21,603 nucleotides of DNA from a virus (Duplodnaviria > Heunggongvirae > Uroviricota > Caudoviricetes): positions 1 to 21,603 of IMG/VR virus record IMGVR_UViG_2778261535_000006, one strand, 5' to 3'. Made by a program: the position numbers and the translations under genes. The notes under the pieces are model-generated. The model did not search any database. It was not told the DNA's origin and saw only the letters and a list, made by a program, of their open reading frames with translations. How positions within the stretch are numbered: the stretch's first letter is position 1; every line of letters begins with the position of its first letter. Below, piece by piece: positions 12,804 through 18,980 of the stretch.

Positions 12804-12986
12804 GCTTCACCTCCGCAGAGGTCAAACGCAAGATGCAAAGAATCACAGGTGCATTTTTGCATCTGTGAGGGGAGAAGAGAGTTTAGATTGTATGTGCGCA
12901 TAAACGTCCCCGTTTAGCGCAGAAGTCACCGGAGTTGTTCAGGCTCCGATGACATGATTATGGCGAGTTGATTATGGAAAATCAAA

Positions 12987-15766: not shown

Positions 15767-16306
15767 TCATATTGCCCCCAGCATGGTGGTGACCATCGCC
15801 ATCAATGGACCAGCCAGATCCGGGTCCACTCGAAACATCGACACAATGCCTTCACTCATCTCCTTCAGTTTCTGGTGGCGTGGTGCGTTGAGAATGACCG
15901 CCTGCTTTGCCTCACTGAGTTCCTTTTCCATTTCAGCCAGCCGAGCCATGAAGCTATCCTGCTCAACCAGGTGGCCGCGATATTCCAGCGGTAGTACCGC
16001 CAGAATTGCCGGGGTCAGTTCACGCACGTTATTTCGGTATTTTTCAGAATCGAATTTGTTATCGAGGAAGCGGAACAGCTTCTGGCGTGCACGACTGACA
16101 TCATCAGGAAAATCGATGGTGCCGCCGCCCTGTGCTCGATACTCATTCACAATGAGTGCGGCAACTACATCCTGATTATCTTCAGCAGACCAGGCGCGGA
16201 CGGCATCACGAATTTTTTCGTGGCCTGGCACCTGTTTTATTTGAGAACGATTTATCACCGCAGTCGGGCTAAATCCGCTAGTCTGTTGGTATGTAAGTGG
16301 TTGCAT
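15767..16306 (-). CDS. YdaT-like protein in the cII position
   Basis: Lies between the cro-like gene and O. Motifs EYRAQGGG and LTPAILAVLPLEYRGHL resemble what I recall of Rac prophage YdaT; unverified. Start taken at the second ATG (16306). Confidence 0.45.
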   Translation of the reverse strand: MQPLTYQQTSGFSPTAVINRSQIKQVPGHEKIRDAVRAWSAEDNQDVVAALIVNEYRAQGGGTIDFPDDVSRARQKLFRFLDNKFDSEKYRNNVRELTPAILAVLPLEYRGHLVEQDSFMARLAEMEKELSEAKQAVILNAPRHQKLKEMSEGIVSMFRVDPDLAGPLMAMVTTMLGAI

Positions 16307-16336
16307 AATCATCGCCTTATCAGTTAACGCCGCAGA

Positions 16337-16564
16337 TTAGGCGGCAGAATTACTCGCGTTAAACAATGGTGCGAGGTCGGGACGAATATCTGCTGGCTTA
16401 ATCTTTCCACCAGTGGCTGAGACAATTTTCATTACATAGCGGGCATCAATTCCGCCACCGTGTAGCCAACGCCAAACAGTGGGCTGGGCTACACCGCATA
16501 GATCTGCCAGTCGTTTTTGACTACCTGTAATACTGATTGCGAGTTGAATGGTTTGATTTGTCAT
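16337..16564 (-). CDS. Cro-like / YdaS-like small HTH regulator
   Basis: ~75 aa, helix-turn-helix-like LADLCGVAQPTVWRW, divergent from the repressor gene across an operator-bearing region; start taken at ATG 16564 with AGGA RBS. Confidence 0.6.
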   Translation of the reverse strand: MTNQTIQLAISITGSQKRLADLCGVAQPTVWRWLHGGGIDARYVMKIVSATGGKIKPADIRPDLAPLFNASNSAA

Positions 16565-16595
16565 TATCAATTCCTATTGGTATTACAATGAATGA

Positions 16596-16624
16596 ATAAT
16601 AGCAATGCGTATTAACCATGGCAA
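16596..16624 (-). promoter_or_regulatory. Putative pR (early rightward-equivalent promoter driving the cro-like operon)
   Basis: Minus strand: -35 TTGCCA (16624..16619), 17-nt spacer, -10 TATTAT (16601..16596), ~30 nt upstream of the cro-like start; overlapped by a palindromic operator candidate. Confidence 0.5.
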
Positions 16625-16662
16625 TAGCAAAACGTGTTTTGACCATCAATACGCAAGCGTAT
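16598..16662. promoter_or_regulatory. OR-like operator cluster between the cro-like and repressor genes
   Basis: Imperfect palindromes TAATAGCAATGCGTATTA (16598..16615) and ATACGCAAGCGTAT (16649..16662) plus AATAGCAA at 16623..16630; the same AATAGCAAT motif recurs at the OL-like site. Confidence 0.4.
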
Positions 16663-16674
16663 AAATTAAAACTT

Positions 16675-17367
16675 ATGAAAAAAGAAACTCTTGCTGATCG
16701 CTTAAACCTAGCGATGGAACAATCTGGGATGTCTCAAGGCGCTCTTGCAAAGGCGTCTGGCGTAGCTCAACCCACAATCTGGAGACTGACAAGCGGCAAC
16801 GCGCGCGGCTCAACAAAAATTGTTGAAATAGCTAATGCATTGGGTGTTCGAACAGAGTGGCTCTCATCAGGCATAGGCCCGATGAGAAATGACGGTCAAC
16901 AATCAGGGAAGCCTACTGTCAACCATTCCAAATACTTCAAGATTGACGTTCTTGATATAGAAGTGAGTGCCGGGCCGGGAGTCATCAACCGTGAGTTTGT
17001 AGAAGTCCTACGCTCGGTTGAGTACTCGTTTGACGATGCTCGTCACATGTTCGATGGCAGGAAGGCGGAAAATATCCGCATCATTAACGTGCGTGGTGAC
17101 AGCATGTCAGGAACGATCGAACCAGGTGATCTGCTGTTCGTTGATATCACGGTTAAATCTTTCGACGGTGATGGCATCTATGCGTTTCTGTACGACGACA
17201 CCGCCCATGTAAAGCGCCTGCAAATGATGAAGGATAAGCTGCTGGTTATCTCTGATAACAAGAGCTACTCACCGTGGGACCCGATCGAGAAAGACGAGAT
17301 GAACCGGGTGTTCATCTTCGGTAAGGTTATTGGGAGCATGCCCCAGACGTACAGGAAACATGGATAA
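16675..17367 (+). CDS. CI-like prophage repressor (N-terminal HTH, C-terminal S24 LexA-like autopeptidase)
   Basis: HTH MSQGALAKASGVAQPTIWRL; peptidase motifs GDSM (Ser) and HVKRLQ (Lys). Start uncertain: ATG 16675 (MKKETLADRL...) has no SD and may be leaderless, whereas the track start 16618 lies inside the putative pR -35. Confidence 0.8.
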   Translation: MKKETLADRLNLAMEQSGMSQGALAKASGVAQPTIWRLTSGNARGSTKIVEIANALGVRTEWLSSGIGPMRNDGQQSGKPTVNHSKYFKIDVLDIEVSAGPGVINREFVEVLRSVEYSFDDARHMFDGRKAENIRIINVRGDSMSGTIEPGDLLFVDITVKSFDGDGIYAFLYDDTAHVKRLQMMKDKLLVISDNKSYSPWDPIEKDEMNRVFIFGKVIGSMPQTYRKHG

Positions 17368-17433: not shown

Positions 17434-18297
17434 ATGGATTGTGACGCTTTACAGGATATAAAAATCTCTCTTAGGTATGACGGAAAAGATGCTTTAAATC
17501 ATGAAATAGATTTGAACTGCCTAGGAGAATCCCTAAAGGGTTTTTCTAAAGTTCTCTCAACAGCAGCTTCTTTCTCTGTTACACAAAAATATAGTAAATA
17601 CATTAATTATCAGGAAGTTAAGGTTTACGCACGCGAAGCAAAAGCTAACTGCTTTACTCTTGAAGCAGTTCTTAACTTCGCCACTCAGAACCAGTTGTTC
17701 TCGGGGATCGCCGCAACTATACTTGGCGCAATACTACAATATATTTTTGCGAGAAATTCTAACAAGAAAGATGAAATGAAAGCTTTGCAGCAGTCACTTG
17801 AAAAGGCCATAGAGGCACTAGGAAACAAGGATGCTGGAACCATTGATAAGTTGATCTCTTTGATTGACCGAATGGCTGTAGAGCTTCGCCCCTCTGTAAG
17901 GCAGGCAGTATCACCTATTGGTAATACTTGCGATCAGATAAGTGTTGCAACAAATGTTGACGGCTGCCTTCTAAAAGTTAACGAGAGAGATAAAGCTGAA
18001 ATTGATAGGCTTGATGATGATGAAGTTCTCGGTCTTCGTGAGTATCGTGCTTTTCTTACAGAATTTGATGCACAAAATATGACAGCTAAAATAATTTTAG
18101 ATGGTGATGACTCAAAAAAGAGAATCACTGCTGAAATTAGCGATCCAGCTGCAGGAAAGAAGAATAACCCGTATATTAGAGCTCTTAGTGCATATATATC
18201 AACCAAAGGTGATCCATCTGCAGTATTCACTATAACCGCAAAGGCTACTGTTAAAAAAGGCCAGATAAACAGGTTATTTATTGTAGATGCGAAATGA
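17434..18297 (+). CDS. Hypothetical 287-aa protein, AT-rich, in the rexAB position downstream of the repressor
   Basis: Clean ORF with its own terminator; one central hydrophobic segment ([19 protein letters not shown]) followed by a predicted helical Lys/Glu-rich region; no motif I recognise. Spot counts on three 60-nt lines give 40%, 42% and 28% GC. Confidence 0.7.
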
Positions 18298-18301
18298 TTT
18301 C

Positions 18302-18328
18302 CCCGGCCGTCGTGCCGGGTTTTCTTTT
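18302..18328 (+). terminator. Intrinsic terminator ending the repressor operon
   Basis: CCCGGC-cgtcgt-GCCGGG followed by TTTTCTTTT, 5 nt after the stop codon of the 287-aa gene. Confidence 0.65.
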
Positions 18329-18450
18329 GCCTCCCCTCATCACACACCGTTCAAAAAACCACCATAACCCCCGCTTCAGTTATCGCTATGCGATGCAAGT
18401 CACAAAATTAATTCCTTTTGCTATCAAACAGTTAATATCAAAATGCATCA

Positions 18451-18496
18451 ATCAATAGCAATAAGTATTGATATCACTAATAGCAATAGCTATTAT
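18451..18496 (+). promoter_or_regulatory. Putative pL with OL-like operators
   Basis: -35 TTGATA (18468..18473), 17-nt spacer, -10 TATTAT (18491..18496). Palindromes TAATAGC-aata-GCTATTA (18478..18495) and ATCAATA-gcaataag-TATTGAT (18451..18472) overlap the promoter. Confidence 0.5.
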
Positions 18497-18773
18497 CACC
18501 ATGTCGCAACAACACAACGATACGGCAACCACCTGATTCGCCGTTGCGATGACCGCTTAGATCCGCAGCTTGAATTTCAGCAGGCTCCGGGGAGTGCGAG
18601 GGGTGAAGCGGACGCGTGAACGTCGGTGTGACCAGCTGAAATCAACTCAACACTTCATACCTCAGTCGCTTCAACGAGGCGGCTTAGTTATGACAACCGG
18701 CGGCCATCCACCGCCTGAATACGCGCAGAAGTCTCTATATGTTCAGCAGCCCAGCTTACGGGCAGGAGTTTTT

Positions 18774-18980
18774 ATGGTTCATCAACATTACGGAACTCAG
18801 ACCGTTAATCGCGGTGCCGTCCGGCCAGGTATGCTGGTTAAACACAAAGATGGTACCTGGACGGCATCAGCTAATTTGCGCGGTCGGCTTTACTTGCATC
18901 GCGGCATCGAACGAACGTACACAAAAGATTTGCTCGTGGAGGTTTACCTGAATGGTACTGGCGGTGGTCTGAGCCACTAA
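18774..18980 (+). CDS. Hypothetical 68-aa protein; the frame is open back to a TTG at 18570 with an Arg-rich N-terminus
   Basis: ATG 18774 has a strong RBS (GCAGGAG, 6 nt). The upstream in-frame extension encodes RLRGVRGVKRTRERR, reminiscent of an N-type arginine-rich motif, but the start codon is unproven. Confidence 0.35.
   Translation: MVHQHYGTQTVNRGAVRPGMLVKHKDGTWTASANLRGRLYLHRGIERTYTKDLLVEVYLNGTGGGLSH

Follow-up and report, generated by a model that had tools for sequence, protein, structure and literature searches.

A predicted lambda-style immunity switch with its own operator specificity in an Escherichia coli lambdoid prophage

The operators of phage lambda are 17 bp long and lie 23-24 bp apart, and phage 434 has 14-bp operators with the half-site ACAA and a repressor with the recognition helix QQSIEQL. 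In the CP-933P switch of Escherichia coli O157:H7 (PaaR2/YdaS/YdaT), the repressor activates its own promoter (PRM) at low levels and represses the rightward promoter (PR), and a copy of the leftward operator and promoter (OL/PL) lies downstream (PMC8630535, PMC9986795). The repressor mRNA of this switch was found to be leaderless by 5' RACE and N-terminal sequencing (PMC8630535). Salmonella phage ST104 has been listed as its own, unstudied repressor specificity type (PMC2629481), and the immunity region of phage BTP1 has been said only to resemble that of ST104 (PMC5322425). No operator strings and no operator work on BTP1 or ST104 were found in the searchable literature. Here, the control region between a cro-like and a cI-like gene was analysed in IMG/VR virus record IMGVR_UViG_2778261535_000006, positions 1 to 21,603; this whole 21,603-bp stretch is referred to below as the window.

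The sequence of the window is that of an E. coli lambdoid prophage. Over the 2.4 kb around the switch, identity was 99.9% to many E. coli chromosomes and, one inserted gene aside, 96-97% to lambdoid coliphages such as 4A7, Perceval, and PhiR30_1. Judged from sequence comparison and from the analogy with described switches, the region very probably constitutes a lambda-style immunity (lysis-lysogeny) switch with its own DNA specificity.

Predicted operators and promoters of the two control regions

The cro-like and cI-like genes are divergent and 110 bp apart. A repeat finder identified three 16-bp sites between them, starting at 16598, 16623, and 16648 and thus spaced exactly 25 bp apart, which were taken as the right operator (OR). 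Two sites of the same kind, at 18454 and 18479 and also 25 bp apart, were found approximately 1.85 kb downstream of OR and were taken as OL. The common form of the sites is AATAS-N6-STATT, with the core ATAGC-N4-GCTAT. The sites were scored with a position weight matrix made from 51 sites from other genera, from which any site identical to a window site had been removed. The sites and the promoters that they overlap are as follows.

16598..16613: OR1, AATAGCAATGCGTATT, within the PR spacer and -10
16623..16638: OR2, AATAGCAAAACGTGTT, directly next to the PRM -35 and sharing 2 bp with the PR -35; matrix score 15.2
16648..16663: OR3, AATACGCAAGCGTATA, between the PRM -35 and -10; matrix score 17.1
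18454..18469: OL2, AATAGCAATAAGTATT, overlaps the PL -35 by 2 bp; matrix score 20.6
18479..18494: OL1, AATAGCAATAGCTATT, within the PL spacer and -10; the most symmetric site; matrix score 21.7
16596..16624, minus strand: PR, predicted to drive cro and the early-right operon; -35 TTGCCA (16624..16619), 17-nt spacer, -10 TATTAT (16601..16596)
16639..16667, plus strand: PRM, predicted promoter for cI; -35 TTGACC (16639-16644), 17-nt spacer, -10 TAAATT (16662-16667)
18468..18496, plus strand: PL, predicted to drive kil, gam, recT, and exo; -35 TTGATA (18468-18473), 17-nt spacer, -10 TATTAT (18491-18496)

A half-site shared by the OR-like and OL-like regions had been proposed in the original prediction, and a copy search bore this out. 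The 8-mer AATAGCAA occurred exactly four times in the window, always on the plus strand and in those two regions only (16598, 16623, 18454, and 18479). In shuffled sequences the mean was 0.84 copies, and four copies were reached in 1 of 100 shuffles. The matrix gave six matches with a score of at least 12, compared to 0.43 expected from shuffles, and all six were in the two control regions. In order of score, these were at 16598 (OR1, 22.1), 18479, 18454, 16569, 16648, and 16623; nothing comparable was found elsewhere in the window. OR1 matched the common form at 10 of 10 half-site positions. The left half-site of OR2 was perfect and its right half-site was weak, and the right half was degenerate in all lineages.

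All four palindromes on which the original prediction was built were present, but OR proved to be made up of three phased sites rather than two palindromes, and the unit that recurs is the 16-bp AATAS-N6-STATT core. The palindrome TAATAGCAATGCGTATTA at 16597-16614 was imperfect, with 12 of 18 positions self-complementary; ATACGC-AA-GCGTAT lies at 16649-16662. The two palindromes at OL, TAATAGC-aata-GCTATTA (18478-18495) and ATCAATA-gcaataag-TATTGAT (18451-18472), both have perfect 7-nt arms. The additional outer bases of the predicted palindromes, such as ATC...GAT in the latter, were not conserved elsewhere. The middle OR site (16623-16638), the 25-bp phasing, and two weaker flanking sites (16569-16584 and 18410-18425) go beyond that prediction.

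The three promoters that had been proposed were also found. The near-consensus minus-strand promoter, TTGCCA-17-TATTAT, is PR (16624..16596), with 10 of 12 consensus matches, a TG extended -10, and a predicted start near 16589. PRM (TTGACC-17-TAAATT) corresponds to the plus-strand promoter that had been placed close to the repressor ATG, and has 9 of 12 consensus matches and a predicted start at 16674/16675. The promoter said to be overlapped by two palindromes, TTGATA-17-TATTAT at 18468-18496, is PL, with 10 of 12 matches and a predicted start near 18503.

The control regions were compared with those of 38 genomic loci encoding relatives of the repressor N-terminal domain, plus Klebsiella phage ST11-VIM1phi8.2 and Salmonella phage BTP1. 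The recognition helix QPTIWRL was found in approximately 30 loci, which represent more than 10 genera (Kluyvera, Citrobacter, Enterobacter, Klebsiella, Raoultella, Yokenella, Pluralibacter, Salmonella, Proteus, Providencia, Morganella, and Serratia). Sites at -77, -52, and -27 (+/-1) from the ATG, with at least 9 of the 10 half-site positions matched, were present in nearly all of these loci; a few loci (such as L025, L026, L027, and L032) reached this level at only one or two of the three OR positions. The QPTIWRL loci also had a second cluster, which lies over a TTGNTA-17-TATTRT promoter 0.9-3.2 kb downstream. In an ungapped alignment of 21 loci, the mean information was 1.90-1.95 bits in the three OR sites (1.91 bits per column in OR1), compared to 1.11 in the OR1-OR2 spacer and 0.85 in the PR leader. 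The PR -10 and the TTGC of its -35 were conserved in this alignment, and both PRM hexamers were invariant; the PL hexamers were conserved across loci as well. In 80 IMG/VR prophages whose N-terminal domain is identical, only 2 of 30 half-site columns were polymorphic, versus 15 of the 48 remaining columns of the intergenic region (Fisher p=0.012).

In two relatives the helix and the site were both different. A Morganella locus with the helix WKL (L034) and Gilliamella, with QKL, had AATAAC where the WRL loci have AATAGC, and the 25-bp phasing was kept. In the alignment, the Arg/Lys position of the repressor helix corresponds to Gln33 of the 434 repressor, which contacts inner half-site bases in the 434 co-crystal structures. 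Read through this contact, the pairing of the Arg/Lys change with the AATAGC/AATAAC change is suggestive only.

The original prediction had also held that the repressor message is leaderless, and the comparison of loci favours this. The -10 hexamer of PRM ends 7 nt before the cI ATG at 16675. In the QPTIWRL-type loci (approximately 30), one decayed Xenorhabdus locus aside, this gap was exactly 7 nt and contained no Shine-Dalgarno sequence; the -10 there was TAAATT, TAGATT, or TAAGTT, and the gap itself was variable (AAAACTT, TAAACTC, CCGAGAC, CGCATTC, TCAGGGC, and others). Gilliamella and Gallibacterium relatives had a longer leader, containing GGGA or AGGAG. A leaderless cI mRNA from PRM is a prediction with indirect support, which also draws on the analogy with described switches. 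The start at 16675 was common to all homologues, the alignment beginning at MKKETL. A longer version of cI, starting at 16618 (a 249-amino acid open reading frame), was rejected: its ATG sits in the OR1-OR2 spacer and is missing from 4A7, and the homologues align from MKKETL at 16675. In public annotations, BTP1 c1 (L042 2465-3190) and the cI of phage Turner (L002 339-1094) begin 12-21 codons upstream of the conserved MKKETL/MK.TL start, within the operator region. These upstream starts, like the one at 16618 in the window, are probably mis-called, hiding the predicted leaderless arrangement.

Repressor, Cro, and the exchanged specificity of phage Turner

16675..17367, plus strand: cI-like repressor, 230 amino acids, HTH_3 and Peptidase_S24 (Pfam; phmmer)
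16337..16564, minus strand: cro-like gene, 75 amino acids, YdaS-family helix-turn-helix (Pfam YdaS_toxin E=1e-14, weak P22_Cro)

These domain assignments agree with the cI-like and cro-like identities given earlier to the two genes. The repressor N-terminal domain is a 434-like helix-turn-helix with the recognition helix GVAQPTIWRL. Residues 6-67 matched 434 repressor chains (phmmer E=2e-5 to 7e-5; Pfam HTH_3 E=2e-6), and the closest solved structures by sequence were those of the 434 repressor N-terminal domain; UmuD' was also matched by phmmer. The repressor carries Ala99-Gly100, Ser143 (in GDSM), and Lys180 (in VKRL), which together predict RecA-stimulated self-cleavage.

Cro has the recognition helix GVAQPTVWRW, almost the same as the helix of the repressor. 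The two proteins were similar over the cI N-terminal domain (BLASTP E=6e-9), with GVAQPT(I/V)WR common to both, and Cro aligned with the Cro proteins of 4A7, a Klebsiella phage, and BTP1.

The repressor of phage Turner is identical to that of the window from residue 47 on, apart from part of the linker (residues 68-82), while residues 3-46 (helices 1-3) differ, so that the Turner helix is GVSQAAIQKI where the window has GVAQPTIWRL. The Turner Cro helix differs too, having changed together with Turner CI. At OL, the Turner and window DNA were nearly identical (approximately 95%) up to 18407 and from 18504, and the 96 bp between (18408-18503) were replaced. The OR and the OL block of Turner contain AACAAC-N4-GTTGTT repeats at similar spacing. 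No AATAGC-type site was found in the Turner control regions, and no Turner-type site was found in those of the window. In other words, operators and CI/Cro helices were exchanged together, as would be expected if the operators define immunity. The earlier proposal that the palindromes are the sites of the CI-like repressor and set the immunity specificity is supported, at the level of prediction, by this block swap and by the conservation across genera.

The mosaic junction between the two immunity types lies inside the repressor N-terminal domain (window 16675-16815 versus L002 402-542), and the proteins are the same from TKIVEIANALGVR onward, the linker part aside. By the alignment of the two repressors, recombination exchanged just the DNA-reading helices. 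The window and Turner, which differ mainly in helices 1-3, part of the linker, and operator blocks of approximately 100 bp, form a natural specificity swap for studying DNA recognition.

These comparisons establish that the sites exist and are phased, that they overlap conserved promoter hexamers and are themselves conserved, and that they co-vary with the repressor and Cro helices.

Flanking sites and neighbouring genes

Two weaker sites and the remnant of a further site flank the operators.

16569..16584: AATTCCTATTGGTATT, candidate auxiliary site in the PR-transcribed leader, over the ribosome-binding site of cro and 29 bp from OR1
18410..18425: distal OL site, AATTCCTTTTGCTATC, 8 of 10 half-site positions, at the left edge of the immunity-specific OL block
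18434..18449: degenerate site remnant, AATATCAAAATGCATC, at -45 from OL1; AATAGCAATTGCTATT in Enterobacter and Klebsiella loci

The site at 16569-16584 had the fourth-best matrix score in the window (17.9) and a counterpart at -106/-105 in nearly all Enterobacteriaceae loci, a conservation that could partly reflect the ribosome-binding site AGGAA. The distal site at 18410-18425 was seventh by matrix score (11.4, not significant alone); almost all Enterobacteriaceae loci, and BTP1 as well, had kept AATTC(N)TTT(N)GCTATCAA at -69 relative to OL1. The remnant at 18434-18449 was not among the top matrix matches in the window. Most relatives had four OL positions, at -69, -45, -25, and 0 from the OL1 start; in the window the -45 site is decayed and the -69 site is kept.

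Turner has a site of its own type, AACAACCTCCGTGGTT, over its cro ribosome-binding site, in the same place as 16569-16584, and the distal site at 18410-18425 falls just inside the block replaced in Turner. Because Turner has its own-type site there and its OL block begins at the distal site, both AATTCC-type sites can be seen as part of the specificity module. That the switch uses four sites per control region, rather than the three of lambda, with these two sites belonging to the module, is a tentative and rather doubtful proposal. If the repressor or Cro does bind them, transcription from PR could meet a roadblock shortly after its start, or the loop between OL and OR could be of another kind, for example one of two octamers.

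In Klebsiella and Enterobacter relatives (L003 5234-5294; L008-L014), the OL2 position consisted of a pair of 16-mers that overlap at an offset of 6 bp, AATATCAATACGTATTGCTATA. In those loci the PL -35 was TTGCTA, inside the second 16-mer; this geometry was not seen in the window.

On the minus strand, the window carries the replication genes P and O, a YdaT-type CII substitute (15767-16312), and the YdaS-type Cro (16337-16564). On the plus strand, the repressor gene (16675-17367) is followed by a DUF7946/DUF7947 gene, a strong terminator, and the kil, gam, recT, and exo genes, whose names were taken from the 4A7 annotation.

17434..18297, plus strand: cargo gene, DUF7946 and DUF7947 (Pfam), 287 amino acids
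18302..18329, plus strand: intrinsic terminator at the end of the cI operon, ahead of OL, with 6 G-C pairs and then a T run

The cargo gene is probably co-transcribed with cI. Its GC content was 0.37-0.42, compared to approximately 0.50 in the flanks, and its single PADLOC match was weak (PDC-S42, E=1.5e-4); it may have a prophage-expressed defence or cargo function. It occupies the slot of lambda rexAB and of BTP1 bstA. In the 80 prophages with the same repressor, the cI-to-OL interval varied from 1352 to 2675 bp, which marks this slot as a hot spot for cargo genes. The terminator was kept in 4A7 and Turner.

The PL leader (18497-18773) contains approximately 277 nt with no convincing open reading frame ahead of kil (18774-18980); an N-like gene is lacking. 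This leader was approximately 95% identical in 4A7 and Turner despite the swapped promoter/operator block directly upstream. An antiterminator RNA like the put RNA of HK022 was considered for the leader and was not supported by Rfam, folding, or similarity checks: Rfam gave no match in 18497-18773, the fold was no better than shuffles (z=0.03), and no similarity was found to positions 22000-30000 of HK022, the stretch compared, outside which putL itself may lie.

A perfect copy of the YdaT consensus TTGATT-N6-AATCAA (PMC9986795) was found at 12968-12985 in the nin region, between a small open reading frame and a NinB-like gene; approximately 0.003 exact copies would be expected by chance in the window. 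The relevance of copies of this consensus to the YdaT-like protein of the window is uncertain.

Proposed mechanism, alternatives, and comparison with known switches

The mechanism proposed for the switch, including binding, cooperativity, the order in which sites are filled, activation of PRM, looping between OL and OR, and the precise points of transcription start, is drawn by analogy and would run as follows. Repressor dimers would recognize the partly symmetric 16-bp AATAS-N6-STATT. In the lysogen, occupation of OR1 and OR2 would occlude PR, keeping cro, the replication genes, and the late genes off, and occupation of OL1 and OL2 would occlude PL, keeping kil and the recombination genes off; at both promoters, one site would fill the spacer and -10 and the next would overlap the -35 by 2 bp. 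Repressor at OR2, which ends at the base before the PRM -35, the geometry of the activating site of lambda, probably activates PRM. OR3, inside PRM, would shut this promoter off at high repressor levels (negative autoregulation) or when Cro binds. The PRM transcript, starting at or next to the cI ATG, probably extends across the cargo gene as far as the terminator at 18302-18329, as that of lambda extends across rexAB. Upon induction, RecA* would promote self-cleavage at Ala99-Gly100 by Ser143/Lys180, and PR and PL would fire; Cro, with almost the same helix, would bind the same sites and lock in lytic growth.

Several points weigh against this reading. No binding, footprint, or transcription-start data for this repressor type were found in the searchable literature. 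OR2 has only one good half-site, and its occupancy would rest on putative cooperativity. Good OL sites number only two in the window, compared to three or four in most relatives, so that lambda-like looping between three and three sites cannot simply be assumed. Promoter-like matches were not above chance in the stretch (6 found versus 5.1 expected in shuffles); the promoter calls are supported because the hexamers were conserved across loci, not by the number of matches. In addition, the compared loci are related by descent, and the conservation is partly inherited, although the spacers in the same alignment diverge. Finally, a few distant loci that share the helix, Xenorhabdus L030 for example, showed a decayed pattern.

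Some of these points would also suit an arrangement in which the sites are real operators of the repressor and Cro but the logic is not that of lambda: binding could be non-cooperative, OL could work with two sites, or each region could use four, with a different occupancy order, PRM activation, and looping. Only two OL sites in the window are strong, the one at -45 being degenerate, both regions are flanked by extra AATTCC-type sites, and CP-933P, with a Cro of the same family, has four equally spaced OR repeats (PMC8630535). The 933W repressor is reported to lack cooperative binding to adjacent sites (PMC3317979). However, the geometry is that of lambda, with OR1 and OR2 over PR, OR2 abutting the PRM -35, and OR3 inside PRM, and the weak right half of OR2 has the look of a cooperativity-dependent site. 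A departure from the logic of lambda is unlikely.

It is far less probable that the repeats are bound by a factor other than CI, such as a YdaT/CII-like protein or a host nucleoid protein. The region is AT-rich, and a copy of the YdaT consensus with one mismatch overlaps the cro start (16553-16570). However, YdaT/CII-type sites were rejected as an explanation: this copy is largely coding (codons N-Q), the consensus differs from AATAS-N6-STATT, and the same sites were kept in loci with a lambda-type CII in place of YdaT (the Klebsiella phage and BTP1). The sites change with the CI/Cro helix and not with the type of CII. The YdaT-like protein of the window had no solved-structure match at E<=1e-3 in a library in which the presence of the YdaT entry 8bt1 was unconfirmed. 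That the shared words are merely chance or promoter-associated AT-rich sequence (TATTAT-like) with no operator role has next to no likelihood: the half-sites do resemble -10 hexamers, the PR and PL -10s overlap them, and promoter-like matches were not enriched overall, but the 8-mer enrichment, the strict 25-bp phasing, the independent matrix result, the conserved half-sites outside any promoter hexamer (such as the two halves of OR1 and the left one of OR2), and the block replacement in Turner all speak against it.

A lambda-style switch with its own specificity thus remains the preferred reading, and its architecture is that of the textbook; the general picture of lambdoid switches is unchanged. 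The immunity type was found in 723 of the 5,426 complete E. coli genomes (13%), and the specificity type is apparently experimentally unstudied. The present analysis gives an operator map for this very common immunity type, which by prediction is shared with the Salmonella phages ST104 and BTP1. The latter is the prophage of African S. Typhimurium ST313 that undergoes spontaneous induction at a high level. The operators and promoters allow homo-immunity to be predicted, induction reporters to be designed, and the ready induction of the BTP1 type to be studied.

As in lambda, cI and cro diverge on either side of three tandem operators, with OR1 and OR2 over PR, OR2 next to the PRM -35, and OR3 inside PRM, and a second cluster lies over PL approximately 2 kb away, beyond a cI and cargo operon that is ended by a terminator. 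The window also shares with lambda the S24 self-cleaving repressor domain; a leaderless cI mRNA is predicted for it as well. It differs from lambda in its 16-bp AATAS-N6-STATT sites at exact 25-bp spacing, in the 434/XRE type of the repressor N-terminal domain, in a Cro of the YdaS family, in a YdaT-like protein that replaces CII, in the lack of an N gene after PL, and in having only two strong OL sites. The likeness to 434 is in the operators, with a core of 5+4+5 (a 14-bp layout), conserved outer bases, and a variable centre, and in the repressor and Cro, which have almost the same recognition helix in both systems; in contrast to 434, the half-site of the window is ATAGC and its helix is QPTIWRL.

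CP-933P resembles the window in having a YdaS-family Cro, YdaT as a CII substitute, and a short divergent intergenic region with PR and PRM. However, PaaR2 is small and has no S24 domain listed, the repeats are GTTTAGTAA, with four in OR, and the CP-933P switch controls a toxin-antitoxin operon; the YdaT-like protein of the window, as noted above, lacked a solved-structure match at the threshold used.

The closest relationship in specificity is to the Salmonella phages. The repressor N-terminal domain was 88% identical to that of the ST104/BTP1 type (Salmonella P22-like ST104, BTP1, ST160, and SE1), with an identical GVAQPTIWRL helix, and the BTP1 OR sites, AATAGCAATTAGTATT, AATAGCAAAACGTGTT, and AATACTCAAGCGTATA, are at the same offsets as those of the window. 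BTP1 likewise has two OL sites, a distal AATTC...GCTATC element, and a cargo/defence gene, BstA, in the slot after cI. The phages of this group differ from the window in virion type and host, in having a lambda-type CII and an N gene, and in their site centres and spacers; judged by helix and operators, the specificity of the window is that of the ST104/BTP1 immunity type.

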